Assembly: GCA_913009825.1 (NCBI GenBank)
Contig: CAJVYQ010000005.1
Location: 25,265-89,264 of the forward strand
Source: an uncultured Deferribacteres bacterium
GTDB taxonomy: Bacteria > Zhuqueibacterota > JdFR-76 > DREG01
Length of the DNA stretch: 64,000 nt
Direction: 5' to 3'
Both the position numbers and the translations under genes were made by a program. Positions 4,985 to 47,698 of this stretch are shown here, piece after piece. Within the stretch, counting starts at the first letter, position 1; every line of letters starts with the position of its first letter. The notes below the pieces were generated by a model. It was given only the letters and a program-made list of their open reading frames with translations. It was not told where the DNA came from and searched no databases.

Positions 4985-5176
4985 ATAACTATTCAGGTAT
5001 GCGAATTGTTTTTTAAACAGGAAGCATTCGACTGAGTTTCCCTGAGCGTGTCGAAGTGTTCAATCTGACTTTAAGAGCCATGCTGAACGCCTGTCCGCTG
5101 CGGGCAGACCCGCCTGCAGTAAGCAGGGAATCGAAGCGTGATTTAGGTAAATATTTAGAGCATCCCTTAATATTTA
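4985..5176. mobile_element. Degenerate MITE of the GTAACTAYTCAG family carrying two tandem 19-bp mini-palindromes
   Basis: Starts ataactattcaggtatgc; body aligns by eye with copies at 40638, 46775 and 53688. Confidence 0.6.
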
Positions 5177-5326
5177 CCTAAATTGAGCGATTCTTAGCTT
5201 AAAACAACCACCCAAAGATTTTTGTCATTCTGCCTGCCCAACCGCAGGCGGGAAAGAATCTTGTTAGTTCTGTGCACTAAACCAACAAAATTCCTACGGA
5301 ATGACATTAGAATCGCTCAATTTAGG
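5177..5326. mobile_element. MITE with CCTAAATTGAGCGATTCT terminal inverted repeats
   Basis: TIRs at both ends; 5-bp TSD ATTTA (5172-5176 / 5327-5331); related ends at 28049-28165, ~47825-47842 and ~52372-52387. Confidence 0.75.
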
Positions 5327-5377
5327 ATTTAGTAACATTTACAATTTTCCCTTGTATTTCCCAATCATTCGCAACAA

Positions 5378-6478
5378 TTATACAATTCTATTTTCCGTAT
5401 CACTATCAAACAGATGCATTTTACTCAGATCAAAAATCAGGTCAATCTGACTTCCGCTTTTGGGCAGGGAATCTGCAGTTAATCGGGCAATAATATTATG
5501 TGCTCCTGTTTTAAGATAAATGTATACTTCATTCCCCATCGGTTCGACAACTTCCACCTCATTTCGCAATGATAGCTTCTCAGTCACTCCAAACGCCTTT
5601 TCCGGTAAATAAATATCTTCCGGGCGTATTCCTAAAAACACCTGTTTGCCGACATACACAGATATTTTTTCCTGATACTTTTCAGGAACCGGAATTTCTA
5701 TCTTGCCATCCATCAGTTTAAATTTGCCATTTTTCGCCACCCGGCAAGTTAAAAAATTCATTGCCGGCGAACCGATAAAACCGGCGACAAATTTATTAAC
5801 CGGGTGATGATACAAATTAAGCGGCGTATCGAGCTGGTGAACTTTCCCGTCTTTCATCACCACAATACGGTCTCCCATGGTCATTGCTTCAACCTGATCA
5901 TGGGTCACGTAAATCATGGTCGATTTCAACTGCTGATGTAATTTACTAATCTCGGCGCGCATCTGCACACGCAGCTTTGCATCCAGGTTGGACAACGGTT
6001 CATCGAACAGAAAAACCTTGGGCCTGCGCACGATGGCACGCCCCACGGCAACCCGCTGACGCTGCCCGCCGGAGAGTACTTTCGGCTTTCTTTTAAGTAA
6101 ACCGGTGATACTCAAAATTTCAGCTGTTTCTTCTACACGCTGCCGAATTTTGTCTTTCGGATATTTTCGCAATTTCAAACCGAAAGCCATATTGTCATAA
6201 ATCGTCATGTGGGGGTATAGCGCGTAATTTTGGAACACCATGGCAATGTCTCTGTCCTTTGGCGGCACATCATTAACCAAACGACCATCGATATATATTT
6301 CCCCCGCACTAATTTCCTCCAGGCCGGCAATCATCCGCAATGTAGTTGACTTGCCACATCCGGAAGGCCCCACTAAAACGATAAATTCTTTATCCTTAAC
6401 CGTTACGTTTACACTATCAACCGCAACAATATTCTTGTCGAACAATTTGGAAACTTTTTTTAGTACAACTTCGGCCAT
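5378..6478 (-). CDS. Carbohydrate ABC transporter ATP-binding protein (MalK/UgpC/MsmX family), stand-alone
   Basis: GPSGCGKST, VFQNYALYPHM, LSGGQRQRVA, DEPLSNLDAKLR, C-terminal TOBE region; no permease adjacent. Confidence 0.93.
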   Translation of the reverse strand: MAEVVLKKVSKLFDKNIVAVDSVNVTVKDKEFIVLVGPSGCGKSTTLRMIAGLEEISAGEIYIDGRLVNDVPPKDRDIAMVFQNYALYPHMTIYDNMAFGLKLRKYPKDKIRQRVEETAEILSITGLLKRKPKVLSGGQRQRVAVGRAIVRRPKVFLFDEPLSNLDAKLRVQMRAEISKLHQQLKSTMIYVTHDQVEAMTMGDRIVVMKDGKVHQLDTPLNLYHHPVNKFVAGFIGSPAMNFLTCRVAKNGKFKLMDGKIEIPVPEKYQEKISVYVGKQVFLGIRPEDIYLPEKAFGVTEKLSLRNEVEVVEPMGNEVYIYLKTGAHNIIARLTADSLPKSGSQIDLIFDLSKMHLFDSDTENRIV

Positions 6479-6703
6479 CTTCTTCTCCGGTTAAATAAGC
6501 AGCAAACGAAACACGAACCCCAACACTGTAGCATTTATTCAGGAAATAAAAATATGGTTTAAATGAAATTGACTCTTGCCTCGGTGGATTTATAAAACAG
6601 TGAGGGAAACAGAATGCGGACAAAAAATTAAAAGCCCACAACTCATATCAAAGCAACAACTTATACAGCGACAAAATAAAAATATAAAAAAATTCTCCCT
6701 TTG

Positions 6704-15038: not shown

Positions 15039-15245
15039 AGCCTACATTATTCACAAACTTTTGCCACAAAGAGACTAAGTCATTAATAATATTGCAATTA
15101 TGGCAACCCATTAATTAAAACTCAGTTTTTTTACGTATTTTTCTATTTAAATGCAAATTTATATAACTTTTTGTTTATTATACCTTTGTGTCTTTCCTGC
15201 CCGATGCAGACGGGGTGCCTTCGCGGCGAATGAATTTTTCAGGCT
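15039..15245. mobile_element. Insertion inside the PDO pseudogene (agcct...aggct ends)
   Basis: Removing it restores in-frame ...ISL-ESEF...; contains 9-bp-period repeats and a 19-bp mini-palindrome. Confidence 0.55.
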
Positions 15246-32361: not shown

Positions 32362-32374
32362 AATGAATTAGATG

Positions 32375-33010: not shown

Positions 33011-33145
33011 TCAGTGACTAAAATTACAAGTGCCTAAAGTGACCTAAAATTAAAAATTGCCGGTATTTTTATTGGGTGATCGATAATCAATTGCGTAAAT
33101 AGCCGCGCAACACGATGCAAGTGGTGAAAGCCAGTAATTTGTTCT
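33011..33145. repeat. Short-period spacer repeat block
   Basis: cagtgactaaaattacaagtgcctaaagtgacctaaaatt...ttgccgg...ggtgatcgataatc. Confidence 0.7.
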
Positions 33146-33285
33146 TCAGCTTAATTCTTCCTTGAAAATCGGGTTTAAATCTTTGAGCGCTCTTTAGGGC
33201 CCAGATCTTTCGGGATCCTTTTTGTTAATAGCCTGTGGGTTTACTTTCAGGCGGTGAGAAAACGAAAAAAAATAAAGATAAAAGT

Positions 33286-35229
33286 GACGCATTCGTAAAA
33301 AGTAAAATCACTATTTGAAATATTTTAGCCAAATTTGACTATTGAGATCTAATTTAATCCTAATTCACTGATTTTTTATTGTTCTTCGAAAATTTCGATT
33401 TTATTTCCCTCTGATTTGTGCGGAGACAAGTAAATTATCACCCAATTAAGCAACATTCAGGGCAATTTCTCTATTTTCGGGCACACTAATCCCATGTTGT
33501 AATTGATACTGTGCTGCTCTAAATAGATTTATTCCCAGAGCCTTTAACCTTGCAGCATAACTAATTTTTGGTAACCCTCGATAATTTAATCGTCTGGCCC
33601 CGGTCATATGGATATATCGGGAATTAGTAGCTTCTATACCTGACCGATAACGATATTTTTCTTTGAACTCTTTACTCTGTTCATATTGTCGGCGAAGCAT
33701 CGTGTGAATTTCTTCTCTGGTATAGTTTAAAAGATAACCCGATTTCCCTGGTCTTACCGGACAGATGTCCTGACCCGGACAATTTCCGCAGAACGATTCT
33801 GACCAGATCGCAGTAATAGAACCTTTTTTGTTATATTTTATCTTCTCTGGTTTATGTCCACAACGACATTTCCGAATTTCTTCTGTTTGTTCATCTACTG
33901 TGAAAACCGACAAATCTTTTTGGGGCTTTCTACCTGGTACCGGTGCGATCAAATCCACACCATATTTTTTTGCCTTTTGGTTGTTTGTTTCACTCCCATA
34001 AGAGGTGTCGGCGGCCAGTTGGTCGGGTAATAAATCTCTGTCTTTGACATCTGCTAAAGCAGGCTCCAGAGCGCCACTATCATGTTTATGAGCCGGTTCT
34101 ACCTCTACATAAGTAAGCAATTCCAGTGAGGGTTTGTCGGATTTCTCTTGGCTTGCTCCAGGCTCTCCCTTCGTTTTAGGCGTGTATGTTTCCATGATTT
34201 GAACCTGATAACCCTGTCCTTTATGACCATCATAAGTCGCATCGGCATCCGATGGATTCTGCAGACTATCTGATGAAATCTCACTGGATTCTTTGACAAT
34301 GATCTTATCTTCCTCAATGCGACATTGCTCGGAAAACACCCGCTGAAGAAGCGTATAACTATACATCGAAACTACACAGTCATGTTCAGAAAAATGGCTA
34401 AGCAAGGTATGTAAATCGGTTGCAATTTCTTCCAAGCGTTTACGGGAACCGGATGGCTTTACATTACCAAAATAAGTATCATCTTCTTCTTTCTCATAAC
34501 GTACCCGCAACTCTTGCAATGAGGAATCGAAATATAAATCCTTGTGATGACGTTTTAAATTCTTTAAAAATGTGGTTATTGTGCGACTTAATAAACGCAC
34601 CCGCCCTAACTGAGCCATGTTGGACTGAATATGAACTGAATCAAGACGTTGTAAACGACTATCTACATGATAAACGTCAGCCAACTTATCGGCTGATTTC
34701 GAAAATGTCTCTTTCGCTAAGTTATCATTAACCAAGATATTTCGCATGCTCCACAATGTCTTCAGTGATACAACATGATCCTTTGGATTAAAACTGTCTA
34801 ACGCGTAATGCCATTGTTCATTAAATGCCAATTGATCTCGTGTCTCGATGTCGCTTAAATCAAACACTTGTTGAAATACGCACGCTCCAACCACCGTAAC
34901 TAATTCTTTCGTCGGACGACCCATCGTTTTAGAGAAGTGTTGACTGACCGCATGTATCGGTAAGGTCTCTAAAAGATGATCTCGAAACACTCCCGCCCAC
35001 GAGGATTTGAGAAGTTTGATCTTTCGTTCATTTAAAATGCCACCCCAAGATTCCATGCCGGGGAAACATGAATTGTCACGTGTTTTAATCTCTACCATTC
35101 TTTATCTTATCCTTCTGTTTTATATGATGATAAGATAAGTCTTTTTATTGTTAAATGCAATAGCTATTATTGTTTAACTTAATTATTATTAATTGCTTAG
35201 AATAGTTTATGACTTTTTACGAATGCATC
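33286..35229 (-). mobile_element. Complete 1944-bp insertion sequence (IS1182/IS5-like DDE)
   Basis: TIRs GAYGCATTCGTAAAAAGT; 6-bp TSD AAAAGT (33280-33285 / 35230-35235). Confidence 0.9.
33446..35098 (-). CDS. DDE transposase
   Basis: GRPTK, QRLDSVHIQSNM, SLQNPSDADATY, ADTSYGS, Cys-rich insert, YRYRSGIEATNS. Confidence 0.92.
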   Translation of the reverse strand: MVEIKTRDNSCFPGMESWGGILNERKIKLLKSSWAGVFRDHLLETLPIHAVSQHFSKTMGRPTKELVTVVGACVFQQVFDLSDIETRDQLAFNEQWHYALDSFNPKDHVVSLKTLWSMRNILVNDNLAKETFSKSADKLADVYHVDSRLQRLDSVHIQSNMAQLGRVRLLSRTITTFLKNLKRHHKDLYFDSSLQELRVRYEKEEDDTYFGNVKPSGSRKRLEEIATDLHTLLSHFSEHDCVVSMYSYTLLQRVFSEQCRIEEDKIIVKESSEISSDSLQNPSDADATYDGHKGQGYQVQIMETYTPKTKGEPGASQEKSDKPSLELLTYVEVEPAHKHDSGALEPALADVKDRDLLPDQLAADTSYGSETNNQKAKKYGVDLIAPVPGRKPQKDLSVFTVDEQTEEIRKCRCGHKPEKIKYNKKGSITAIWSESFCGNCPGQDICPVRPGKSGYLLNYTREEIHTMLRRQYEQSKEFKEKYRYRSGIEATNSRYIHMTGARRLNYRGLPKISYAARLKALGINLFRAAQYQLQHGISVPENREIALNVA

Positions 35230-35439
35230 AAAAGTGACTAAAGTTTATAAAACAAGATTAAAGAGCGAAGATTAAAAACCATTAAAACTATATGGCTACT
35301 GATAAGTCTGCAATTGCACAAAATTTGTAGTGAATTTGTCGAAGAATTATCATTGCACAATGATGGCATAGATCAAATCCTTGTACAGAAACTCCTGCTC
35401 CACCATTGATTCTGATACAACAGTCTGCGGTTCCACACT

Positions 35440-35703
35440 CTAAGCAATGGCAACTTTAGGTTTAAGCAGCCTTAATTTGGCTGGTTTGAGGCCTTTCACT
35501 TTTATATAAACTACCTTTTGGTCTGGCTCTCTTTGTCTCTCGGCTAACTGTTTACTCCACTTATTATATTCTTGATCTCCTTCAACCTGAAGAACTATCT
35601 GGGCATTTCGTGGTATTTTCATTTCAAATTCAGGATGCTCTATCACGTATCGGTCAAATTCCGTTACCAATATGGCATGTTTTTTCTCTAAGATATTCAT
35701 CAT
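35440..35703 (-). CDS. DUF5647-like antitoxin candidate
   Basis: EFDRYVIEHPEF...IPRNAQIV pattern; directly downstream of an RYDxAHG gene. Confidence 0.75.
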   Translation of the reverse strand: MMNILEKKHAILVTEFDRYVIEHPEFEMKIPRNAQIVLQVEGDQEYNKWSKQLAERQREPDQKVVYIKVKGLKPAKLRLLKPKVAIA

Positions 35704-35707
35704 TTAG

Positions 35708-36003
35708 TTACCCTTTAGAAAAGCGGTAAATCTTCCAATTTCCCTTTATATCTTCATCTGCCAAAATCAAGGCTTCGCTGAGTTTCAAATTGAGTTCCTC
35801 TTTGATCTTTCTTCCATCCGGATAGTATCGGTCTATATGAGCAAAGCCGTGAGCGGAATCATAACGAATGACTACCTGCCATCAATCGTCAACTAAAACT
35901 TCCAATTGAGCGATAAAACCGATAACCCTACCTTTATCTGTTTCATGATAATCCTCTTGCGCGCATTCTCGCCCAAAGGAATTACATACTCAATAATCCT
36001 CAA
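35708..36003 (-). pseudogene. Toxin-like RYDxAHG protein (DUF7718-like), with a frameshift and an internal stop
   Basis: Manual translation ...FIAQLEVLVDD*WQVVIRYDSAHGFAHIDRYYPDG...DIKGNWKIY. Confidence 0.7.
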
Positions 36004-36174
36004 ATCCCGGTTACCTCAGGTTTTGTTTTGTCCGGATTTGTGAAGAAAGGACAGGAGAGGAAAGGAGAAAGTAAAACTGAAAACGGAAAATAATGTAACT
36101 GCGAGAAAGGCGCGCTTGCCCAACGTCTTTCTGGTGGGTTGGTTTGGCGGGAAAAACACGAAATAATAAAAATT

Positions 36175-36270
36175 AGTGACTAAAGTTAAAAATGATTAAA
36201 GTGACTAAAGTAAAAGAGCAGTGACTGAAATTGTAAGTTGTCGGTGATAGGTTATCGGTTTAAAATCTGA
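36175..36270. repeat. Short-period spacer repeat block
   Basis: agtgactaaagttaaaaatgattaaagtgactaaagtaaaagagcagtgactgaa...ggtgataggttatcgg. Confidence 0.75.
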
Positions 36271-36490
36271 ACCGAGCGGTGACTTAAGCGCATGAAGTTA
36301 AGAAACAAGAATAAAGATAACAAAACTATGGTTACAAGCGCCAAAGGATTAGAAATAAATCAAAGATTAACTCTCATTTTTCTATCTCTCTTCTATCTGT
36401 GCCAACTTTTCATTCTTTTTCTTAGTTCTTTAATCTTGCATTTTGATACTTGCTTCCCGGCAATGTCTTTCACCCATGGAAATTTCAAAA

Positions 36491-36700
36491 TTATCTTTCA
36501 TTTACTTTACCCTTTCTATCTTTCACGGCTAATTGACTTAATTTATTTACTCCCATATCATCAAAAAGATCTTTTTGCCATTTAGTATAATCAAATGGCT
36601 CACACAATAAAAGGGAGATGAATTTTTCAGCATCTACTTTTCCCATTTTCTGAGCAAGAATTTGTATTCCTTTAATTTTTATTTCAGTCTCTGTTAACAT
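36491..36700 (-). CDS. Small antitoxin-like protein (family usually next to a PIN-domain gene)
   Basis: TETEIKIKG...GKVDAEKFI...EPFDYTKWQ motif. Confidence 0.7.
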   Translation of the reverse strand: MLTETEIKIKGIQILAQKMGKVDAEKFISLLLCEPFDYTKWQKDLFDDMGVNKLSQLAVKDRKGKVNER

Positions 36701-36889
36701 GAATTATTTCTCTAATATTGATGGCAACAATAATTAACCACCGGGAACATCCGCTAAAAAGACTAGGGGTTGGCGGTAGGCACCGAAATTTTAATTTTTA
36801 CATAAATTTGAGAGATACTCATGTCTTTCAGCCTGCAGATGGTGATTTTAGGCTGATAAATACTCAGTTAAAGTAATAATTAAACAACC

Positions 36890-37126
36890 TTATATTGAGG
36901 CAATAGTTGAATAATTTGAAGTTTGAAAAGATATATTCACTTCACCTTGTTTTATAAGATTTTTTACCGTAGCATTTCTAAACTCTATTGTAACCGGATT
37001 CCCTTGCTTGCCATAGCTTATTATAACTCCGCCCGGTTCCTCTAAAGCATCGACTGGGGGATCATCACTGATACCTATTAATAATATATCTGATTCCGGA
37101 TCATATTTGAATCTCATATTAAGCAT
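36890..37126 (-). CDS. DUF2283 protein (antitoxin-like)
   Basis: MRFKYDPESDILLI...GNPVTIEFRNA; start at 37126 or 37117. Confidence 0.8.
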   Translation of the reverse strand: MLNMRFKYDPESDILLIGISDDPPVDALEEPGGVIISYGKQGNPVTIEFRNATVKNLIKQGEVNISFQTSNYSTIASI

Positions 37127-37385
37127 TTCTCCAATATTTTTCAATTTTGCTGGTATGATATAGCGTTAGAATTTTACGACTGCCATTAATTTCTATGAAT
37201 GGCACTCTCATTAAACCATTTTTATATTTTGATTGGGCAATTAGATCTTCTCCATCTCCCGGTACAATCTGGTTTGGTCTTTTAATTATTTCTTCGATAT
37301 CTTTTTTTAAAGGATAATTTGTGATAACAATTAACCGATCTTTTTCTACAAAATAAATAATTTTAAATGGAAATTGAAAATCATT
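37119..37385 (-). pseudogene. DUF4258/RelE-like toxin remnant, apparently chimeric and lacking a true start
   Basis: FPFKIIYFVEKDRLIVITNYPL joined to KDIEEIIKRPNQIV...KILTLYHTSKIEKYW; ORF N-terminus derives from repeat DNA. Confidence 0.55.
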
Positions 37386-37759
37386 CTGCTTCTTGAGATA
37401 TTTACACACCAAGTTGGTTAAAAAAGAGCAAGTAAAAAGTAAAAAGGCAAAAGTGAAAAAAAAGAGCAAGAGCCTGAAGAAATTTTAACCACGAAATACA
37501 CGAATAGAGAAAAGTAAGAAGGAGGGAGTGAGAAGTAAGAAAATAAACAAAAGATCAAAGAAATATCGCCCGCGAATGTTGCGAATAGAGAAAGACGTCA
37601 CGATTAAAGATTGCTCAATATATTTCTCCATTATTTATCTTGTTTTTGTTTTTTTTCCAGGTAATAAATTTAAATTTCAACCCAGTTGTTGAGTTTTAGC
37701 AGTTATTCGTAAAACGCCTGGCACTACTTATAACTTTTTTACTTTCTACTTTTGACTTT

Positions 37760-38080
37760 TTATTTCTCTTCCAGCGCGGTTATTCTTTTTTCATGTCTAA
37801 GAAGCGCAGAATTGGTGGTTACTTGTTCTGTTCTGATGACATCCAATTCTTTAACTATTTTATCTTGCCCAGTGATTATGATATTCATTATATTCTTGAG
37901 GTCATTTGCATCATTTTTGATCTCATTGACCTCGGTTTTGATTTCATTGACCTCGGTTTTGATCTCATTGACCTCGGTTTTGATTTCATTGACTTCGCTT
38001 TTCTTAGCCACATCGTTCATTACATATTCTGCAAGTGTTTCTAACAATGCGTGAATTTTTTCAATTGTTATTTTTGACAT
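37760..38080 (-). CDS. Coiled-coil hypothetical protein with an (EVNEIKT)x4 tandem repeat
   Basis: 21-bp tandem repeat at ~37915-37998; RBS-like AGGGCGG. Confidence 0.75.
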   Translation of the reverse strand: MSKITIEKIHALLETLAEYVMNDVAKKSEVNEIKTEVNEIKTEVNEIKTEVNEIKNDANDLKNIMNIIITGQDKIVKELDVIRTEQVTTNSALLRHEKRITALEEK

Positions 38081-38142
38081 ATTGGCCGCCCTTTTTATAA
38101 ACGTTAAATTTTTCTGTGGAGAGGAACCAAATGAATACTCAA

Positions 38143-38156
38143 TTTACAGCTCCGCC
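38143..38156 (-). promoter_or_regulatory. ops-like motif GGCGGAGCTGTAAA, copy 2
   Basis: Identical 14-mer to 44126-44139 upstream of upxY. Confidence 0.5.
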
Positions 38157-38201
38157 ATATAACTCACATAAATGAAAGAGATAGCAAGCAGATTTGCACT
38201 G

Positions 38202-38338
38202 AGAATATTGTGTATTATATTTTTTTATTTTTCCGGGTCTTTTGCAGCGCTTCAGCCCACCCCAAAATGATAAGTTAAAAAGATAAAATATTTGTAATAA
38301 AATTCAATAGGGAAATGCGGAAGAGCAGTGATTAAAGT
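38202..38338 (-). promoter_or_regulatory. Promoter/leader-like ~140-bp repeat, copy 2
   Basis: TTGAAT-N16-TATCTT then AAGCGCTGCAAAAGACCCGGAAA; similar to 30968-31110. Confidence 0.5.
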
Positions 38339-38384
38339 GAACTAAAGTAAAAAGTAAAAGGGCAAAAGTAAAAAGTTTTTTATC

Positions 38385-38959
38385 TTATTTTGGAATTTTT
38401 AATTTTGGCTTTGTTTTTGAATTTTTAGCAACTTTAGTTGAGATTGAACCAAGAATTTTCTTTAGCTGGAAGACTCATCTATCAGTCGGGCAGTTTTGGT
38501 CTTATCCGCTATATTAGTTGCTAAAATTAATCTCACTAGTAATTTGACTCTCTCATTTCTTCTAACGATATATCCACCTTACTTTTAAAGTCAGCTCTTG
38601 ATGAAGCAGCTTGCGCCTCTTCGTAATTAGTGCCTGAACGAAAAGTATCTAAATTGTATATCAAACATCTTGTTTGAATTATAATCTTATTGAAAAGAAG
38701 GAAACTAAACAGTTTATAAAACAAGCAAGATGCATGTTTTCCACTTTTCGTTCAGACACTAATTAGCACCAGATGAAGTTGCTGCCTTAGTTAACTGATA
38801 GCGGATAACATCAGATTCAGGACTTCTTTTCATTGTTCGTAGAAGATTTATCACATCTATAGCAAAATCGAATAGTCTCTTTTGCAAAGAAACGGAATAT
38901 GTTTTCTTTAATTCATTAATTGAATCTGCTTCATATAATTTTTCTTCCATTTGCCTCAT
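38385..38959 (-). pseudogene. Four-helix-bundle protein (23S rRNA IVP / TIGR02436-like), disrupted
   Basis: LQKRLFDFAIDVI...QLTKAATSSGAN|YEEAQAASSRADFKSKVDISLEEMRESNY*...ESSQLKKILGSI; split by the MITE at 38630-38759 and by a further stop/frameshift. Confidence 0.88.
38630..38759. mobile_element. 130-bp MITE GTGCCTGAACGAAAAGT...ACTTTTCGTTCAGACAC
   Basis: TIR; 6-bp TSD TAATTA; second copy at 47136-47698. Confidence 0.9.
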
Positions 38960-39026
38960 CTTTTGCCTTTTTACTCTTGCCCTCTCTCGCGTTATTTTTT
39001 CTTAATTGTATGTTTAAGGTTAAAAA

Positions 39027-39165
39027 TAGCAACTAAAGTTTAAAGTGCCTAAAGTGAGGTAAAGTTGGAAGTTGCCGGCAGCCGGTGATCAGTTATCGGT
39101 CATCGGTCATCGGTGATCAGTTGCCAAAACAGCCGTGCAGAATGGAGAAACTGATAGCGAATGGC
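39027..39165. repeat. Short-period spacer repeat block
   Basis: actaaagtttaaagtgcctaaagtgaggtaaagtt...ggtgatcagttatcggtcatcggtcatcggtgatcagttgccaaaacagccgtgcag. Confidence 0.8.
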
Positions 39166-39380
39166 TGTATTTCTTAGATTAAATCGCAACTCCGTCTCCT
39201 GTTGGTTCAACTCACCGCTCAGTCATGTAAATCACATGGATGTAAGACATAGCAAATATTTATGAGTTTGTTGATGTACAACAAAAAAGCTGCCAAAGTT
39301 TTTTATCACTCCTGCAAATTTTCAGGATTTCCAGGTACTTTAGGTGTTGACTTGACAGCAAACAATCACAGAAAAAGGGT

Positions 39381-40619
39381 TCAATTTCCGGCAATAATAT
39401 CTGCCAGAACATGGACAATTCTTTCCGCAGCATTTCCGTCCCAATATTTTATTTTAGCCGGACGGACGTGATTTAGTTTCAGCATATTTTGCGCATCTGC
39501 AACAATTGCTTCCCGGCGTAAAGGGACCAGTTTATTCGTACCCGCGCGGATTGTAATTGGGCGTTCCGTATTAGGCCGCAGTGTGAGACAGGGCACACCG
39601 AGATAACTGGTTTCTTCCTGTATGCCGCCGGAATCGGTAAGCACCAGCGCCGCCCTGGTCTGTAGATGAAGAAAATCCAAATACCCGATTGGCTCTGTAA
39701 ACAGAATCTCACTGCTATCAATTTTACGGCGCAAAGATTCACCCGACTGGGCTAACAATTTCCTCGTCCGGGGATGTACCGGAAAAATCACGGGGATTTC
39801 TTTGCTGATTTCCGTCAGGGCAGTTACGATGGCCGTCAACATCGGTGGATCATCTACATTACTGGGCCGGTGCAGCGTAACCAGGGCATATCGCCGGATG
39901 CTTCCGTTCCCGTCACGATGGGCTGCCAATTCGTCCAAAATAGTGGACTTCTCAGATCTGTTCAGATAAAATTGCAGAGAATCGATCATCACATTTCCGA
40001 CGAAAAATATCTTGCGTGTATCGAAACCCTCTGCAATCAGATTCTCATCACCGTCGACGCATGTGGTAAATAACAGATCGGACAGAGAATCCGTAATAGT
40101 GCGATTAATTTCTTCCGGCATGTCGGAATCAAAGCTGCGCAGCCCCGCTTCCACATGGGCAATCAGAGGCCGGTCGTTCGACTGTTTCTTTGATTGTTGT
40201 AGAGCTGTAATATTACGGGAAGCAATGTATTGGTCATAATTTGTCCAACATTTATGTAACCGGTCTGAACCATATCGAATTTTTGCCGCTGTTAAAGAAC
40301 AAGCAAGAGTTGAATTTACATCCCCGACTAAAATCAATAATTCCGGTTTGAGCCGCTCGAGTTCCCGCTCAAACTTTTTCATTACTTCGGCGGTCTGAAC
40401 CGCATGGCTGCCGGAACCAACTCCCAGATAAATATGAGGTTTGGGTAGTTCCAGATCGTCAAAAAATATTTTCGACATCTTTTCATCGTAATGCTGGCCT
40501 GTATGCAGAATGATCGGTTCGAACAGCTCCGCGTATTTTTTCATCTCCTTGTAAATAGGCGCTATTTTCATAAAATTCGGCCGCGCGCCGACGATAAGAA
40601 ATATTCTTCGTTTGGGCAT
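39381..40619 (-). CDS. wecB: UDP-N-acetylglucosamine 2-epimerase (non-hydrolysing; WecB/WbpI family)
   Basis: VGARPNFMK, HTGQHYD, VGDVNST, HVEAGLRS, MPEEINR, TDSGGIQEE. Confidence 0.93.
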   Translation of the reverse strand: MPKRRIFLIVGARPNFMKIAPIYKEMKKYAELFEPIILHTGQHYDEKMSKIFFDDLELPKPHIYLGVGSGSHAVQTAEVMKKFERELERLKPELLILVGDVNSTLACSLTAAKIRYGSDRLHKCWTNYDQYIASRNITALQQSKKQSNDRPLIAHVEAGLRSFDSDMPEEINRTITDSLSDLLFTTCVDGDENLIAEGFDTRKIFFVGNVMIDSLQFYLNRSEKSTILDELAAHRDGNGSIRRYALVTLHRPSNVDDPPMLTAIVTALTEISKEIPVIFPVHPRTRKLLAQSGESLRRKIDSSEILFTEPIGYLDFLHLQTRAALVLTDSGGIQEETSYLGVPCLTLRPNTERPITIRAGTNKLVPLRREAIVADAQNMLKLNHVRPAKIKYWDGNAAERIVHVLADIIAGN

Positions 40620-40637
40620 AGGGTACTCTTTCTTTTT

Positions 40638-40783
40638 GTAACTCTTATTGTTTGATATGCAGGAAGCCTTCGACCGAGTTTATCCCGAGCTTGATGGAAG
40701 GGCTCAGGCCGGCTTAAATAGCCATGCTTAGCGGTGTCGAAACGTGATTACAGCTAATTCACAGAGCATACCTGAGTAGTTAC
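40638..40783. mobile_element. MITE of the GTAACTAYTCAG family with a REP-like core
   Basis: Ends in cctgagtagttac; body is the reverse complement of 53688-53843 and 46775-46949. Confidence 0.75.
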
Positions 40784-40922
40784 TAATTCCTCTAAAAATT
40801 AACTTCCCGTCCCCTTAAGTCAACAACATTGGGGGAGAAGTACGGGTGTCTAAAAAAACTGAAAAACAAAAATAAGCCTTACAGAAAATCAAATAACCCG
40901 GTGATTGGTTACGCACACCTCA

Positions 40923-42566
40923 TCATTTTCCATCAACCCGTTTAACCGGTTTGTCTTCATCCCAATCCAGACATTTCAGCACGCCGGGCTTAACTTCCCG
41001 GTAGCGCCACCCACTTTTCGGGCAAATCATGATTCCTTTTTCATCCTGTTCAGGCAACCTGGCGCCGTGACGACTTATCCAGCCGATTCTGCGCGCCGGC
41101 ACGCCGGCCATCAGCGCATACCCGGGCACATCTTTTGTCACCACCGCACCGGCGGCGATGAAAGCAAATCGACCGATAGTGTTGCCGCAGACAATGGTGG
41201 CATTGGCACCGATGGATGCGCCGTACTTCACCAGCGTTTCGTTATAAAATTCAGCGCCGCGCTGCGGGAATTCACAGCGCGGTTCCATGATATTGGTAAA
41301 AACCATGGATGGGCCGCAAAATACGTAATCCTCTAATTCCACACCTTCGTAAACAGAAACATTGTTTTGTATTTTGCAATAATTACCAATTTTTACGTGA
41401 TTGCCTAAGTTTACATTCTGTCCCAGCGTGCAATTTTTACCAATTTCCGAACCGCCTTGTACGTGCGAAAAATGCCATATTTTTGTCCCGGCGCCGATTT
41501 TCACACCTTCATCCACAATCGCCAGGGGATGGATGAAATAGCCGGTTTTATCTTCCTTTTCAATCCCGGACTTTTCCACACTTCGGTTCAATTTGCCGTT
41601 CATGCTCTTCGTTGCGCTCTCTAAAATATCAAGCACTTCAACCCCATTCCGGCCGTCGGCGATTTCGATGGGAGCGCCATCCAGATGGTCAACAAAATAT
41701 TTCATCTCTTCGGTCAACGCCATCGCCGGATTATAAGGGATCACATCTGTCGGACCGTCCCGTTTTATCGGTTCACCCTTTATCCAATCGATCCCTTTTT
41801 CATAGAACAAAATCTGCTTTTCCCGGCTGGAATCTTCAAAAGAGAGCATCCCTCTCGAACCGATCACGACCAGACGCTGTTCTTTAAACGGATGCAGCCA
41901 GCTCACAAAAATATGCGCCACAATGTTACCTGGATATTTCAAGGTGGTTAACGTAGTATCATCAATATCCGGCTGTAAAAAAGCACCGCCGCGAGAAAGG
42001 ATCTCGACCGGATTTGCTCCGATCAAGTATTGAAAAATGGAAATATCGTGGGGCGCAAAACTCCATAATATATTTTCTTCCGTCCGAACCGTGCCCAGAT
42101 TGAGGCGATTGCTGTAGAGATATTGCAGCCGGCCGATTTTGCCGTTATCGATCCATTCTTTAATTTTCCGAATTGCAGGATGAAAAAGTAAAACATGCCC
42201 CACCATCAGGTTAACCTGATGGTCTTCCGCCGTTTTTTTCAGTTTCCGGGCTTCAGCGGCAGTCAGGGCCAGCGGTTTTTCCACTAATACATGATTTTTA
42301 TGTTCAAGTAAAAAAGAGGCAATCTCAAAATGTGTCTCCGCAGGCGTGGCCACGGTGAAACCGTCAAAGTCAGTCTCGATCGCATCCCGGTAATTCCTGA
42401 ACATCTCAACGTCCGGGTATCGTTGGGAAAATTCGGTGTTAATCTTATCATCCTGTTCGACAATACCGCCAAGACAGCCCAGCGAATGCAGGGTTTTGAT
42501 ATGATTTCTCCCCCATCTTCCGGCGCCGATGGTACAAACTCTCATTTTTTTTATCGATTCACTCAT
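40923..42566 (-). CDS. Fused Gfo/Idh/MocA oxidoreductase (WbpB/WlbA-like) and hexapeptide N-acetyltransferase (WbpD/WlbB-like)
   Basis: IGAGRWG, VEKP, MVGH, FAPHD; then KIWHFSH, CKIQNNVSVYEGV, FCGPSMVFTN, GVPARRIGW; start moved to 42566 because the upstream ORF part lies in a MITE. Confidence 0.88.
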   Translation of the reverse strand: MSESIKKMRVCTIGAGRWGRNHIKTLHSLGCLGGIVEQDDKINTEFSQRYPDVEMFRNYRDAIETDFDGFTVATPAETHFEIASFLLEHKNHVLVEKPLALTAAEARKLKKTAEDHQVNLMVGHVLLFHPAIRKIKEWIDNGKIGRLQYLYSNRLNLGTVRTEENILWSFAPHDISIFQYLIGANPVEILSRGGAFLQPDIDDTTLTTLKYPGNIVAHIFVSWLHPFKEQRLVVIGSRGMLSFEDSSREKQILFYEKGIDWIKGEPIKRDGPTDVIPYNPAMALTEEMKYFVDHLDGAPIEIADGRNGVEVLDILESATKSMNGKLNRSVEKSGIEKEDKTGYFIHPLAIVDEGVKIGAGTKIWHFSHVQGGSEIGKNCTLGQNVNLGNHVKIGNYCKIQNNVSVYEGVELEDYVFCGPSMVFTNIMEPRCEFPQRGAEFYNETLVKYGASIGANATIVCGNTIGRFAFIAAGAVVTKDVPGYALMAGVPARRIGWISRHGARLPEQDEKGIMICPKSGWRYREVKPGVLKCLDWDEDKPVKRVDGK

Positions 42567-42589
42567 CACTCCATCCTTTTCGATATTTT

Positions 42590-42832
42590 GTAACACTTTA
42601 GTCCTTTGAAAATAACTTATTTTTGACGAGAAGAAACAAGTAGACCCTTCAACTTCATCCCGATAAAAACCATCGGAACACGCGTTCAGAGTGACAACCT
42701 CTAAAACCATGCCATGTTGAACGCGTGTCCGCCGCAGGCGGGAAGTTCCGGGGGTTTTTGTCGGGACGGAGTCGAAAAAATCTACATCATATAAGAAAAT
42801 GAATTAACAATTTCAAAAAACTAAAGTGATAC
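42590..42832. mobile_element. MITE GTAACACTTTAG...CTAAAGTGATAC
   Basis: TIR; 8-bp TSD GATATTTT (42582-42589 / 42833-42840). Confidence 0.85.
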
Positions 42833-42840
42833 GATATTTT

Positions 42841-43179
42841 TTAAATCGGAATATTCTTTATGGTTTTATAAGCGACCGGATCCAGCAACAACGCCGCGTT
42901 TATGGTTTGCTGATACGACGCGTACGCCTGCCGGCCATCGATCAGAGAAGCAATTACTTCCCGCAATCGCAAACACTCGGAAAGCTTCCTATTCCATTTG
43001 GGATCGGCTATGATATAATCCAGCAGAATAACAGCCCGATAAAGGTGGTTTTTAGCAGTCTGCGGAGTGCTTTTTGAAAAATTTTTTGCTTTGTTCAGAT
43101 CGCTGACCAGATGCAACACCTGTGTCGCTGCAGGGAAGGATGAGAACCTGAATTTTAAATTTTTATACCAGTTCTTCAT
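42841..43179 (-). CDS. Hypothetical helical protein, partner of DUF5674
   Basis: Overlaps the DUF5674 stop; 112 aa. Confidence 0.65.
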   Translation of the reverse strand: MKNWYKNLKFRFSSFPAATQVLHLVSDLNKAKNFSKSTPQTAKNHLYRAVILLDYIIADPKWNRKLSECLRLREVIASLIDGRQAYASYQQTINAALLLDPVAYKTIKNIPI

Positions 43180-43588
43180 TTGCCCTTAAAATATTTTCTT
43201 CTACAATACGCTTGATTTTATCACGAATTTCAGAATCAAGTAATTCTATACCGGGATTGTTCTGATGCGGGCGAATGTTAATCAACGCCGTAAACTCTAT
43301 TCTTTTTCCCGGATACTGCCGGGGATAGAAATTTACACCCCACAAATCTTCCTGCATACTCCCTTCCTGCAGCAGCATCTCTTCCCCATCTGCATGCAAA
43401 TCGCCGCCAACGGCAATTCTTTTCCGCTCGATATCTACCACCAATTTTACCATGTCGCCAAACCAGGCGTTACATAAGGAACGTAATGCCTGTGCCGATA
43501 TCTTATCGCCGATAATTTGGATCGATTGATCATGCAACGGAAAGTCCTGAATTTTACGCCTGCGTTTCCCACAAGCAGGCACTTTCAT
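43163..43588 (-). CDS. DUF5674-like protein
   Basis: MVKLVVDI...HADGE..LL..GS.QEDLWGVN...ALINIRP. Confidence 0.8.
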   Translation of the reverse strand: MKVPACGKRRRKIQDFPLHDQSIQIIGDKISAQALRSLCNAWFGDMVKLVVDIERKRIAVGGDLHADGEEMLLQEGSMQEDLWGVNFYPRQYPGKRIEFTALINIRPHQNNPGIELLDSEIRDKIKRIVEENILRANEELV

Positions 43589-44097
43589 CCCAGCTTGCGC
43601 AACAGGCCGGGATCGATTTCCACAGATAAAGATTGACGAATGGCATCAATGGTGATGACAAACCGGCGCTTGTTTCTCTTCTCTATCAATTTTCCTTTGA
43701 TGCCGGCAAACGTACCTTGAGTGACCTCGACAGCATCTCCATATTGTAGATAATCGCACGGCCCAACAGAGGCGCCTCCCTCCATCAATCTCCGGATCGA
43801 GTCGATCTGATCATCCGGGATAACAGATGGTTTACCGCCAAACCTGACCATGCGCACAACCCCGTCCACACGCAGAGAACTGATCCGATCCCGGGGAGAC
43901 ACGTGGACAAATACATAGCCGCGAAACAAAGGTTCTTTTATTTTTTTCTTCCGGTCACTCCATTGCCGAATAACCGTTTGCAAAGGAAGATAAGTTTCGA
44001 TCTCTTTTTCATCCAATTGCACCTCTACCTTTTTTTCAAAGCGCGGCCGGGTGTAAAGGGCGTACCAATTCAACTTAGTTTCAGCTTGTTCCAACAA
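43585..44097 (-). CDS. upxY: UpxY-family (NusG paralog) transcription antiterminator
   Basis: WYALYTRPRFEKKV, WSDRKKK, PLFRGYVFV, KOW motif GDAVEVTQGTFAG; TTG start with RBS. Confidence 0.92.
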   Translation of the reverse strand: MLEQAETKLNWYALYTRPRFEKKVEVQLDEKEIETYLPLQTVIRQWSDRKKKIKEPLFRGYVFVHVSPRDRISSLRVDGVVRMVRFGGKPSVIPDDQIDSIRRLMEGGASVGPCDYLQYGDAVEVTQGTFAGIKGKLIEKRNKRRFVITIDAIRQSLSVEIDPGLLRKLG

Positions 44098-44125
44098 TTA
44101 ACCAAATCCTTCCCGGAAAATGAAT

Positions 44126-44139
44126 TTTACAGCTCCGCC
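44126..44139 (-). promoter_or_regulatory. ops-like motif GGCGGAGCTGTAAA in the upxY leader
   Basis: 28 nt upstream of the upxY start; resembles the RfaH ops GGCGGTAG; second copy at 38143. Confidence 0.5.
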
Positions 44140-44425
44140 CTGTCAGTCCCACAAAACGGCACGATTATAAAAAAACAGAGAAATTGACCCATTAAATCAA
44201 TTTGCCGAAAGCAATCCTGCTAAATTCCAAAAGATAATTTCAGATATTCTGAATAAAGAGTAAGAAGACAGGAATCGGGATTGCAAAATCTGATTTGAGT
44301 ACCACATACTACCTTTAAGACTTCGCTTTCAATCATACACTATCAAACAGAACCGGCCTTGCAGCAAGACTTCGACATCAATAAATGAATGGTTCAAATA
44401 AAATAACAAGTACAGAAAAACAGAA

Positions 44426-46741
44426 TTATATCTGATGAACAGAATGACTGTGTTTTTTATGCCGGCTTTTACTTTTGCGTTTCTTCTTCTTTCTGCCGTC
44501 TTCCGCGCCGTAGTAATAATAGTAATAGTAATAATAGTAATAGGAACCGTACATGTAGCCGGAAGACACATCGTTCAGTAAACTTCCCAATAAAGAGGCC
44601 TTCACATTTTCCAGCAATTCATGCGCCCGGATTGCCGCATCCTGATCGGTTATTTCCGAACGCAGCACCAAAATGACACCGTCCACTTTGGGCGCCAGCA
44701 CAAGGGCGTCCGTAACCGCAATGAGGGGCGGTGAGTCGAAAAAGACATAATCATAGTTTTGCGACAAGTCCTGAATTAATTGTTCCATTCTTTGCGAAGC
44801 CAATACCTCCGATGGGTTCGGCGGCAAAATTCCGGTTGTAATCAAATCAAGGTTTTCCACTCCGGTTGTTTTAATTATCTCATCCAGGGATGCCCTTCCC
44901 ACCAGATAATTGGACAGCCCTGTTTCCCGTTTCAAACTAAACAGGTTATGCAAAACGGGACGGCGTAAATCCGCATCCACAAGTATAGTTTTTGAACCCA
45001 TCTGCGCCACGGAGATGGCTAAATTGGTTACAGACGTAGATTTACCTTCGCCCGGTCCGGGGCTCGAAACCAGAATCGTTCGCGGCGGATTGTCTGCCTT
45101 CGAATACTGAATTTGGGTGCGCAGAGAGCGGTAAGCCTCTGAAATGGGCGATTTCGGCTTCAGATGAGTAATTAATCGATCTGCAATTTCACCCTGTTCG
45201 GATCTTCTGCGTCCCTTCGATTTTTTCACCGTAAAAATAGCCGGTTTCCAGAAGCCGTTACTATCATCCGGTTTGATCTCCGGTATGGAACCTAAGAACG
45301 GCAATTTGATACGCTCCAGGTCTTCCACGGTTCGGATAGAATTATCCAGATATTCCAGGAAAAAAGTAATGCCGACCCCAAGACCCAAGCCGATTAATAC
45401 TCCCAAAATCAGATTCATTTTTTTCTTCGGAGAAATCGGTGTTCTGGGTGGAACAGCCACATCAACAATTTTGATTTTTCCAATCTGTCCCGCACGGGTT
45501 ATGCGTGATTCTTCATATTTCTCTTTCATCATTAAATAGATATTTTCGTTAAGCTGACGCGCACGCTCTAATCGAGCTAACTCCATACTTTTGTCCGGCA
45601 AGGTATCCAATTTTTTACTGTATTGATCTACAATCTCTTTCAATTTTTCTACACGGGAAGAATTTGCTTCGATCTCAGTTTCTGCTTCAATAATTTTTGT
45701 CACCAGTTCCTGATACGGTTGCAAAGGGTCGTCAACCGGAATTTTACTGCGTAATATTTTACCGACTTCTCCCTTTAATTCTTTTTTTAAAGCATTAATA
45801 TCTTTTTTCATCTTTTTCATATTAGGAAAATTCTCATTCACGCCTTCAATTTTATATTCGATATATCTGGCTTCTTTTTCAGCGATTCGCTCCCTTAATT
45901 GTCTTATATAAGGCGTAGCAATTTGGGAAAGATCATTTTCAAGTGATTCTCTTCTGTCACCGAGTTGCGATTTTAAATAATTTAGCCTGGTTTGGTAAGT
46001 CTTCAATTCAATATCAGCAGTATTGTAGGCAGTCTGAAATTCCACAACTTGATCGACCATTCTCTGAGTTTCTTCGGGCAATGCGACAATACCCGTATTC
46101 TGTTGAAATTGGCGCAAAGCTTCCTCAGAATTTTTCAGATCTTTTGATTTTTGAGATAATTGCTTATCTAAAAAATTTACGACTTCACTTATTTCCCCTC
46201 TGCTTTGGTTTCTGTCTAAAACCTGATACCCATGGGCAATTTTATTTGTTAAAAAAGCCGCCTCCCAACCGGATGGCGCTTTCATCTTTATTTTGATAAT
46301 ATCCGTATCTCTGACGGGAGAAATAGATAAATTCCTTCGGATACGAGCGACTCCCAATACCCGATAATTCACAGGACCTTTAGCTTTTTCAACATAAAAA
46401 AGTTTTAACGAATCTTTCTCAGGAGAATTAAAAAGATCATCAACGACTTTTCCCGCAAGAGATCTGCTTTTGAGAATTTCAACCTGATTATTTATTTCTG
46501 TCATTTGTTTGCCAAAAGGAGTAACACCAAAAAGGGTATTTTCGATCCCTCCTTTCTGACTTATAATAACAGAAGATTCCGCCTCGTACACCGGCGGCGT
46601 GGTGAAAGTAAAATAGGCTGTAGCGGCAACAACAATAATAAACGAAAAAATGATAATCCATTTTCCCCCGTACAGCACCCGAAGATAATCCGTTAACCGT
46701 ACCGGCTTTTCTTCTAATTGATTATTCCATGATTCCTGCAA
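44426..46741 (-). CDS. wzc: Wzc-type polysaccharide co-polymerase/tyrosine autokinase
   Basis: Two TM segments, coiled coil, PISPKK, EAYRSLRT, GEGKST, DADLRRP, DSPP, C-terminal Tyr cluster. Confidence 0.93.
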   Translation of the reverse strand: MQESWNNQLEEKPVRLTDYLRVLYGGKWIIIFSFIIVVAATAYFTFTTPPVYEAESSVIISQKGGIENTLFGVTPFGKQMTEINNQVEILKSRSLAGKVVDDLFNSPEKDSLKLFYVEKAKGPVNYRVLGVARIRRNLSISPVRDTDIIKIKMKAPSGWEAAFLTNKIAHGYQVLDRNQSRGEISEVVNFLDKQLSQKSKDLKNSEEALRQFQQNTGIVALPEETQRMVDQVVEFQTAYNTADIELKTYQTRLNYLKSQLGDRRESLENDLSQIATPYIRQLRERIAEKEARYIEYKIEGVNENFPNMKKMKKDINALKKELKGEVGKILRSKIPVDDPLQPYQELVTKIIEAETEIEANSSRVEKLKEIVDQYSKKLDTLPDKSMELARLERARQLNENIYLMMKEKYEESRITRAGQIGKIKIVDVAVPPRTPISPKKKMNLILGVLIGLGLGVGITFFLEYLDNSIRTVEDLERIKLPFLGSIPEIKPDDSNGFWKPAIFTVKKSKGRRRSEQGEIADRLITHLKPKSPISEAYRSLRTQIQYSKADNPPRTILVSSPGPGEGKSTSVTNLAISVAQMGSKTILVDADLRRPVLHNLFSLKRETGLSNYLVGRASLDEIIKTTGVENLDLITTGILPPNPSEVLASQRMEQLIQDLSQNYDYVFFDSPPLIAVTDALVLAPKVDGVILVLRSEITDQDAAIRAHELLENVKASLLGSLLNDVSSGYMYGSYYYYYYYYYYYGAEDGRKKKKRKSKSRHKKHSHSVHQI

Positions 46742-46774
46742 GAATATTCTCCTCCGATTAATCTAAAAAATTTA

Positions 46775-46949
46775 GTGACTACTCAGGTATACTCTCCAAT
46801 TTAGCTGTAATCACGCTTTGATTCCCTGCCCGCAACAGGCAGGCGCTCAGCATGGCTATATAAGCCAGCCTGAACCCTTCGTCAAGCTAAGGATAAACTC
46901 AGTCGAAGGCTTTCTGCGCATCGAACAATAAGCATACCTTAGTAATTAA
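46775..46949. mobile_element. MITE of the GTAACTAYTCAG family with a 19-bp insertion
   Basis: Aligns with 53688-53843 plus extra cctgcccgcaacaggcagg at 46825-46843. Confidence 0.75.
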
Positions 46950-47135
46950 ATAAATAAAATATGTAAAAATCACATGCAATCCGAGATGTTCCATATTAAT
47001 ACGAACTAATAATATTAGGAAATAATTATTTCAAAATCAAGTGTAATTTACTGCATAAATGTAACAAATATTTATGGAATTTTACCATCTTGAAACATTA
47101 TTCCCTGTAATAAATTAGCAGAAAAATATTATATA

Positions 47136-47698
47136 GCGGCTGAACAAAAAGTATCTAAATTAGTAACTATTCAGCCACAAAGTCTCCCTGCCTGCATCGG
47201 GCAGGGAAGGCACTAAGATACATAAAGAAAAAGAAATTAGGCAACTATTCAGGTTGCCCGCTAATATCGCTAAAAAACGAGAATCGTTAACTATTTTGTC
47301 CTATTCGTATGATTTCGTGTAATTCGCGGGCTGAACAGGCAGACGATTTTTTCAATTTCTCTGCGCCCTCCGCGTCTCTGCGTTAAAAAAACAGGCGCTT
47401 TAAAACGCAGAGACGCAGAGAGCGCAAAGGAAGCGGTTTTGTTCAAAAAACTAAAGTGTTACGGTATTGTCACTACTCAGGCAGCCCGCGAAAGACTCAA
47501 AAAAAACAGGAAAAAAGTTAGATGAGATCTTTCGATTGTTTCGTGTGCTTTCTGCCTGTGTCAGACAGACGTGAGCTGAATAGTTACCTAAATTATATAT
47601 CAAACATCTTGTTTGAATTATAATCTTATTGAAAAGCAGGAAACTAAACAGTTTATAAAACAAGCAAGATGCATGTTTTCCACTTTTCGTTAAGACAC
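47136..47698. mobile_element. Nested MITE complex: 130-bp element interrupted by a 425-bp GTAACTATTCAG...CTGAATAGTTAC element (47163-47587)
   Basis: Outer halves match 38630-38759; inner element has an 8-bp TSD CTAAATTA. Confidence 0.85.

Follow-up and report, generated by a model that had tools for sequence, protein, structure and literature searches.

A palindrome of 18–20 nt that behaves like a minimal insertion module within bacterial repeats

Several small GC-rich palindromes insert into other sequences, genes included: the GC clusters ('byp') of yeast mitochondria, and the Rickettsia palindromic elements. The small dispersed repeats (SDRs) of Nostocaceae, the subject of Elhai et al. 2008, are reportedly 21–27 nt long and nested in other repeats. 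This report concerns a shorter hairpin, (CCYG)2-loop-(CRGG)2, found repeatedly in 64,000 nt of DNA from an uncultured Deferribacteres bacterium (the window, G000:C5:25265-89264; G000 denotes the assembly, 5.1 Mb in 123 contigs with 43.5% G+C). An earlier note on the window listed 11 copies of this unit and proposed a minimal non-autonomous module gained by structured repeats. Comparison of filled and empty sites bears out that proposal: insertion is precise, leaves no target duplication, and has the polarity of gain. The unit probably is a self-contained, gene-less insertion module of 18–20 bp, linearly copied and pasted precisely without duplicating its target; its behavior is that of one of the smallest known mobile DNA elements.

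By description, rather than by comparison with SDR sequences, the closest published analogue is the set SDR1-8 of Nostocaceae (Elhai et al.). The portions of PMC5861425, PMC2884548, and PMC3116915 that concern SDRs cite them as very small mobile repeated elements; those in PMC5861425 place none outside Nostocaceae. As so described, SDRs resemble the unit in being gene-less, about 20 nt long, thought to be mobile, and located inside other repeats. By that account they are restricted to Nostocaceae, whereas the unit is an 18–20-nt (CCTG)2 palindrome present in a non-cyanobacterial phylum, in many phyla, and in phages. The yeast and Rickettsia elements also differ from the unit: they are 30–150 nt long, have other sequences, and are organellar or limited to single lineages, whereas the unit, at 18–20 nt, crosses phyla.

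Repetitive extragenic palindromes (REPs) and REPINs are said to go with REP-associated tyrosine transposases (RAYT or TnpA-REP), reportedly the subject of Nunvar 2010, Bertels and Rainey 2011, and Ton-Hoang 2012. REPs are lineage-specific. The unit shares with them a short, imperfect palindromic form, a mostly intergenic location, hundreds of copies, the absence of target duplication, and presumed single-strand handling. It differs in having neither a cognate Y1 gene nor a head tetranucleotide (two of three defining tests gave a negative result), and in having a sequence common to many phyla. The difference from miniature inverted-repeat transposable elements (MITEs) is simpler: the whole unit consists of two 8-nt arms, and filled and empty alignments reveal no target duplication. 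Among 124 loci from across the phyla, none has the same 4–6 nt on both sides of the unit, and two have the same 7 nt.

A third comparison is with the targets of SsnA, a single-domain GIY-YIG single-strand DNA nuclease. Its motifs, as given in part of PMC11893778, are NTS/dRS3 and the Ssn-related motif (SRM), whose pattern is HGTCWYN(0-2)YYVSBRHN(0-5)WNVSBRGN(0-2)RNCYNB (Chenal et al. 2025, PMC11893778). A term search of that part found no description of hairpin insertion into other sequences. Judged against the NTS as so described, the unit occupies the place of the GC-rich inner hairpin, between ATTC and GAAT. G000 also contains near-canonical NTS-like hairpins and three small GIY-YIG genes, one of them bracketed by such repeats. 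The unit nevertheless is not itself an SRM: of 397 units, only one overlaps an SRM match, 41 have such a match within 60 nt, and 166 have no GTCATTC...GAATC flanks; nor does the unit track Ssn-type genes across genomes.

The earlier consensus, CCTGCCYG-N2-4-CRGGCAGG, is matched exactly by two of the 11 window copies (46825-46843 and 47187-47205); the other nine were likewise found where they had been listed, with 1–3 mismatches. In its 19-nt form, with up to three mismatches allowed, it has nine window matches versus 0.29 expected (100 shuffles; largest, 2). One of these nine, at 18543-18561, lies within a long open reading frame (ORF) and probably arose by chance. Because copies differ by transitions at fixed stem positions, the strict pattern was made degenerate: CCYGYCYG-N2-4-CRGRCRGG. 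The genome-wide search that had been suggested returned 266 strict copies from G000, versus 1, 0, and 0 in three order-3 Markov simulations, and none with the pattern read backwards. Allowing one mismatch gave 397 copies, and allowing two gave 672. About half of the latter additions are noise, since 129 of the 275 fall inside ORFs. On a crude ORF map, by which coding sequence makes up 82% of the genome, most strict copies (248 of 266) are intergenic. By the ORF list, so is every one of the 11 window copies, and the flanks of all 11 match repeated hosts defined by the site families described below, in keeping with the placement inside larger repeats that had been noted for every copy. The companion claim, that none lies in coding DNA, is correct for the window but not elsewhere: units interrupt a transposase gene in genome G169 and add six codons to a gene in genome G025.

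To seek empty sites, the two 40-nt flanks of each copy were joined, and the product was matched against the genome. For 262 of the 397 copies, this returned gapless matches across the joined junction, with no base duplicated or missing and with flank identity of up to 100%. The absence of a target-site duplication, first noted in the window, holds at these sites as well. Copies were then grouped through junction-registered clustering (which replaced single-linkage clustering of 50-nt flanks, a procedure that merged 445 flanks into one cluster), yielding 147 site families (110 singletons; 396 copies). An empty paralog at ≥85% identity is present for 49 of the 147 families, which account for 261 of the 396 copies. 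One exact variant can be found in as many as 12 unrelated site families; of 192 variants, 36 are present in two or more families.

The direction of change can be read from a MITE family with ends ACCTGAATTGAGCG..., which has 131 near-full copies: 122 empty and nine filled. The filled copies always carry the unit at GATTCG^CTGAATC, and all nine contain the unchanged variant CCTGTCTGCACAGGCAGG. Their backbones, however, are only 82–98% alike, and each is nearer an empty copy than any filled one. The empty copies cover the diversity of the family, with the filled copies scattered among them; a FastTree tree evaluated by Fitch parsimony has an empty root and nine gains. Had the motif been as old as the family, it should have changed along with the backbones; the unit was gained, not ancestral. 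In 11 families with at least five filled and three empty copies each, 55 of 189 filled copies are nearer an empty copy than any filled copy. Aligning MITE paralogs thus indicates that the palindrome was gained, rather than being an ancestral motif lost by deletion.

Within the window, one host is present in three states, as was noticed originally: the junction between 53737 and 53738 is empty, the paralog at 46825 contains one unit, and the paralog at 5090-5127 contains two stacked units. The empty junction reads ...TTCGAATC directly followed by CGCTCAGC..., with no unit. The window copies and hosts are listed here (no strand is assigned; mismatches are to the earlier consensus).

5090-5108: unit copy CCTGTCCGCTGCGGGCAGA, first of a tandem pair; 2 mismatches; stacked at the point that is empty in the paralog at 53737/53738
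5109-5127: unit copy CCCGCCTGCAGTAAGCAGG, second of the tandem pair; 3 mismatches; stacked with the 5090 unit
5233-5252: 20-nt unit within a hairpin, between GTCATTCTG and AAAGAATC; 2 mismatches; dRS3/Ssn-motif-like host
15196-15214: 19-nt unit between GTCTTT and GTGCC of a repeat host; 2 mismatches; host type with empty paralogs (families 2 and 24)
20405-20575: MITE with inverted ends GTGTCTGTCCGAA...TTCGGACAGACAC; hosts two units in its core hairpin
20444-20461: 18-nt unit CCTGTCTGCACAGGCAGG; the most frequent variant, with 40 copies spread over 12 site families
20476-20494: 19-nt unit CCTGCCTGTTGCAGACAGG; 22 copies in 7 site families
30116-30133: 18-nt unit; its host is a paralogous MITE (30078-30240) with 33 nt missing
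42724-42742: 19-nt unit CGTGTCCGCCGCAGGCGGG in a repeat host; 3 mismatches; flanks of the family 11 type
46825-46843: 19-nt unit, the filled state of the host that reads ...CACGCTTYGAWTC then CGCTCAGCATGG...; exact consensus match
47187-47205: 19-nt unit; exact consensus match; flanks of the family 2 type
47551-47569: TCTGCCTGTGTCAGACAGA variant; 3 mismatches; 46 copies genome-wide, both orientations counted
53700-53775: empty paralog of the 46825 and 5090 host; junction between 53737 and 53738

The 5233 site belongs to the largest site family (family 0), which has gapless empty paralogs; here, the unit lengthens the host stem. The 20405 MITE has at its core an Ssn-motif-like hairpin, GTCATTCCGG^CAAT..AAGCCG^GAATC, with units at CCGG^CAAT and GCCG^GAAT. 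In its empty-empty form, TGTCATTCCGGCAATCTTTAAGCCGGAATCTAC, this core matches the published SRM pattern. The 30078 MITE indeed is the 20405 MITE minus 33 nt (the spacer plus the second unit), as had been supposed, and the deletion is bounded by AAT microhomologies. Rfam and tRNA scans of the window identified no family for the unit hosts. Sequencing runs carrying window DNA (four runs from two studies, as contigs) are labelled marine metagenome, and one contig, from run X2, covers 43791-47192 unchanged, including the 46825 unit.

The ground state of the unit is a perfect palindrome, CCTGCCTG...CAGGCAGG, with loops of 2, 3, and 4 nt in 89, 119, and 58 strict copies, respectively. Almost all strict copies (245 of 266) contain 1–3 non-Watson-Crick stem pairs. 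Stem positions 3 and 7 have either T-A or a transition mismatch, with C-G almost absent (2 of 532 each), and position 5 has either C-G or a mismatch. This pattern indicates that the arms alter on one side only, the reverse of compensatory change. Moreover, mismatched variants are replicated faithfully (for example, one 18-mer with a C·A pair is present in 40 copies), which suggests that the linear sequence is copied rather than regenerated from the fold. Isolated units fold only weakly as DNA (-3 to -5 kcal/mol), and units extend the stems of their hosts.

Units also combine with one another. Tandem pairs exist (5090/5109), and one unit may be nested within the loop of another (CCCGCCTGCCG-unit-GCGGGCAGG), as at loci L009, L011, and L015 of genome G040 and at genome loci L059 and L099. 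In 43 of the 49 site families with empty sites, G stands immediately to the left of the unit or C immediately to its right; at the 124 pan-phylum loci, left G and right C are found 47 and 34 times. Such a flanking base creates a 1-nt ambiguity at the junction. In one G169 unit (L159:1941-1977), a (CCTG)6 tract extends the 5' arm, which suggests microsatellite-like slippage of the arm repeat.

Landing sites are far from random. ATTC within 10 nt to the left, or GAAT within 10 nt to the right, is present for 231 of 397 units (58%) versus 10.8% of random intergenic junctions; both are present for 93 of 397 units versus 0.5% of such junctions. These flanks are the arms of dRS3 and SRM hairpins, which the units favor. 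The SRM pattern has 78 matches in G000 versus 6–17 in controls, and one of these, TGTCATTCCCGCGAAAGCGGGAATCCAT, is almost the Neisseria NTS. Other records reveal other landing places: pieces of tRNA genes (D arm, variable region, and T-loop), runs of 7-nt repeats in phage contigs, and coding DNA. In those records, the exact 20-mer described below often lies within 7-nt tandem repeats or between identical direct repeats of 7–14 nt (TTGCGGA-unit-TTGCGGA). Such settings, at viral loci L196, L198, L204, L214, L219, and L225 and genome locus L104, are unlike the duplication-free sites of G000.

Units were counted in 167 genomes of the phylum, including two unpublished genomes (G158 and G162) on which no claim depends. 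Six genomes have at least 17 units: G000, 266; G025, 86; G064, 66; G040, 42; G047, 20; and G001, 17. The other 161 have 0–8. The six span three families, and two genomes from the family of the window have none. A pan-bacterial scan for perfect arms (one genome per species; 185,579 species genomes; 596 Gb) yielded at least 119 stretches. The exact 20-mer CCTGCCTGCCGGCAGGCAGG makes up 70 of about 135 matches listed, whereas the expectation for one 20-mer in 596 Gb is about 0.5. Its carriers, among the matches listed, are labelled Patescibacteria, Omnitrophota, Bacteroidota (including cultured Flavobacteriaceae), Planctomycetota, Gammaproteobacteria, Acidobacteriota, and others. The 20-mer also is present in 35 stretches of IMG/VR viral contigs, with up to six per contig. 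The largest number, 682 units, comes from G169, a chromosome assembled from a metagenome and assigned to Gammaproteobacteria.

Insertions into coding DNA show the direction of change clearly outside G000. In G169, a transposase gene with HTH, rve, and rve_3 regions is cut into four pieces by three 19-nt units, each exactly at a codon boundary. Read singly, the pieces match HTH, nothing, rve (below the cut-off), and rve_3; with the three units removed in silico, the gene has an open frame of 317 aa. Two copies of this insertion sequence carry the same three units (L145:991-1998 and L147:4180-4790). This sharing would reflect duplication of a dead element or continued mobilisation of the interrupted gene. 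The affected gene in G025 has six extra codons, formed by an 18-nt unit, and its ortholog in G064, of the same genus, lacks exactly those 18 nt. This coding insertion is the only informative one in the G025-G064 comparison, in which intergenic DNA around units proved unalignable at about 75–80% identity.

Taken together, gain is repeated and precise, occurs without duplication and with a preference for particular sites, and extends across phyla and phages. How the unit moves is approached more tentatively. We infer a single-strand intermediate, an enzyme, and a joining step. The unit would be copied as linear sequence, keeping its own mismatches and loop, with an overlap of at most 1 nt at insertion. 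The preferred targets in G000 would be loops and stem junctions of hairpin repeats, chiefly ATTC...GAAT hairpins (dRS3 or SRM) in MITEs, and many copies would then multiply passively as the host MITE multiplies. Presumably unable to move itself, the unit would depend on a trans-acting enzyme that acts on single-stranded, folded DNA to free or copy a short self-complementary piece. Host repair might then join that piece into DNA that is single-stranded or broken where another hairpin is exposed. The best candidates for the cutting step, although weak ones, are small Ssn-type GIY-YIG single-strand nucleases. The route might instead be a general one of the host, with gaps or breaks capturing self-complementary fragments once these are released.

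The three small GIY-YIG genes of G000 lie in contigs C7, C2, and C90. Repeats of the form GTCATTCAG..GGAATC, some filled and others empty, bracket the C7 gene (97 aa), which has units at distances of 73, 264, and 411 nt. The C2 gene (G000:C2:120551-120787; L150:1416-1954) encodes 78 aa, contains an in-frame TGA, and directly follows tRNA-Ser(tga). Next comes a duplicated 3' piece of the tRNA, with an 18-nt unit-like palindrome in its T-loop (two mismatches, 77 nt from the gene). The C2 locus looks like a minimal selfish cassette that targets tRNA genes. Its product is 45–46% identical to GIY-YIG proteins from a viral contig (L227) and a WWE3 genome (L091), both of whose genes adjoin the 20-mer and a tRNA piece. 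For the C90 gene, the nearest listed unit (two mismatches) is 974 nt distant. Small GIY-YIG genes are present in the unit-rich genomes G000, G025, G040, and G169, and also in G002, which has no units. The co-occurrence with GIY-YIG genes that had been suggested thus finds circumstantial support in the C7 and C2 neighbourhoods, but presence of these genes does not track unit counts, either in the 167 genomes or in G169.

Several results weigh against, or fail to support, a dedicated mobile module or parts of the proposed mechanism. First, 134 of the 189 filled copies in the 11 families are nearer another filled copy and most simply were inherited with amplifying hosts. In several families the filled copies cluster (for example, 0 of 9 and 1 of 20 nearer an empty copy), and gene conversion between repeats could mimic some gains. 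Second, the preference for hairpin tips finds no support from contiguous stems: in 147 site families, the stem was ≥4 bp for 14% versus 15% of partner-shuffled controls, and flank complementarity at the 124 pan-phylum loci likewise was no higher than in such controls. Third, public-run contigs for window positions 28500-48400, which are fragmented at repeats, displayed no gap or joint of 18–20 nt at five units. Finally, GIY-YIG nucleases cut DNA but do not join it. Orthologs of the C7 type (≥60% identity) are present in about 20 genomes with 0–2 units, including G003 with none. The C2 type matches 61 of the 167 genomes, and at least one unit is present in 30 of these 61 versus 46 of the 106 non-matching genomes; strict units are found at 0 of 13 C2-type ortholog loci in other genomes, and G169, with its 682 units, has no C2-type match. 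Of the unit-bearing loci elsewhere, only 3 of 119 from genomes and 1 of 35 from viral contigs have a small GIY-YIG ORF within about 400 nt, as scored by a home-made profile that may miss distant forms. No enzyme examined (Y1 or GIY-YIG subtypes) co-varies with unit counts across genomes. Moreover, SsnA cuts upstream of its hairpin, not where units sit, according to the relevant part of PMC11893778.

Among other explanations, the one with an outside chance invokes no dedicated mobility: short-tract gene conversion or recombination among repeats that share ATTC...GAAT flanks. The adjacency of 58% of units to ATTC or GAAT, the concentration of most hosts in a few related repeat superfamilies, and the repeated gain at an identical site in one family all fit. 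Nevertheless, the same variant is present in contexts without common flanks, and units also lie in a transposase gene, in ordinary coding DNA, and in pieces of tRNA genes; phage contigs and unrelated phyla share an identical 20-mer. In two filled copies, a departure from the family consensus falls less than 9 nt from the unit (within 8 nt); conversion tracts, if they exist, would thus be very short.

It is quite unlikely that the unit is a REP spread by a RAYT (an HUH/Y1 enzyme) acting on single-stranded hairpins, the mover that had been favored at the outset. In favor are the imperfect palindromic form of the unit, its REP-like size, its intergenic location in G000, the absence of target duplication, and the five Y1_Tnp-like proteins that G000 encodes.

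C82:13229-13699, C28:45846-46316, C1:174217-174654, C33:41928-42506, and C69:19816-20391: RAYT-like Y1 genes of G000, encoding the five Y1_Tnp-like proteins

However, the palindromes or repeats that bracket these genes form a different array for each of the five, so that G000 has what amount to several independent REP/RAYT systems. None of the five has the unit on both sides; the C82 gene has a single unit 430 nt downstream. Across G000, G001, G002, G025, and G040, a strict unit lies within 1.5 kb of one of eight Y1 loci. G169, despite its 682 units, has no match to Y1_Tnp (PF01797) at E ≤0.001. Base counts in the flanks of the site families and pan-phylum loci reveal no conserved GTAG-like head, only G at -1 or C at +1 in roughly half of the site families. 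An HUH/RAYT enzyme is therefore unlikely to be the mover.

A very unlikely alternative is that the palindrome does not move at all, but is a functional site (protein-binding site, terminator, stabiliser, or nuclease target) made or kept by selection. Arm sequence is very strongly conserved across phyla, mismatches are patterned (the C-G deficit at stem positions 3 and 7), and the unit associates with Ssn-motif hairpins, which are nuclease targets in the account given by part of PMC11893778. Point mutation cannot make the same 18–20 nt at a gapless indel, however. No T-run follows the hairpin in the window copies, and copies break a transposase gene. The earlier idea of a binding site selected within repeats therefore survives only as an added role: function may be laid on top of mobility.

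Palindromes are prone to deletion, and it could be argued that the hairpin is original to the host MITEs and REP-like repeats, with empty sites arising through deletion. One real loss is known, that of the 33 nt between AAT microhomologies in the 30078 MITE, and the clustering of filled copies in several families is as expected. Against this, the empty sites of 49 families are gapless and in exact register, the nine filled members of the 131-copy family are scattered with an unchanged 18-mer on backbones that differ by up to 18%, and units break both the G169 transposase frame and the otherwise colinear G025-G064 ortholog pair. This explanation is largely refuted and highly improbable. An assembly or library artefact, such as a palindromic adapter, is suggested by a perfect 20-bp palindrome in many metagenome-assembled genomes but has next to no probability, given that a single genome contains hundreds of variant copies whose mutations differ between families, that the records come from many laboratories, that cultured isolates labelled Winogradskyella echinorum and Flagellimonas yonaguniensis carry 1–6 copies, and that the independent run's contig covers a unit unchanged.

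The insertion module may have a broader identity. It is conceivable, though we lean against it, that the unit is a pan-bacterial, phage-carried, hairpin-only element, the smallest known, put into exposed single-stranded loops (repeat hairpins, tRNA gene arms, and coding DNA) neither by a transposase with target duplication nor by HUH peel-and-paste. Repair might capture oligonucleotides released by nucleases, and the element would bloom to hundreds of copies in unrelated lineages. A search of article text for the exact 20-mer, two of its sub-strings, and small mobile palindromes found nothing, in agreement with the earlier statement that no named family was known for it. The unit is best placed with the tiny nested repeats, and there is a substantial chance that its mechanism is new.

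If a bare hairpin of 18–20 bases does spread within and between genomes, it would set a new lower size limit for mobile DNA and would imply an undescribed DNA-joining route on folded single strands. It would also explain how mosaic repeats (arrays of the BIME, NIME, and SRM types) gain modules, and would provide a natural marker of single-stranded DNA exposure. The unit may, in addition, give rise to in-frame peptide insertions and inactivate genes. Its mobility can be tested at the bench, since the same 20 bases are present in phages, in cultured Flavobacteriaceae, and in many phyla.

Two minor features of the window may be recorded. G+C content falls to 33–39% at 32000-40000, versus 43.5% for the genome. 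An Acido-Lenti-1 RNA, the sole Rfam family in the window, is encoded at 30528-30572 on the minus strand (44 bits versus a gathering score of 37), a few hundred bases from the 30078 MITE.

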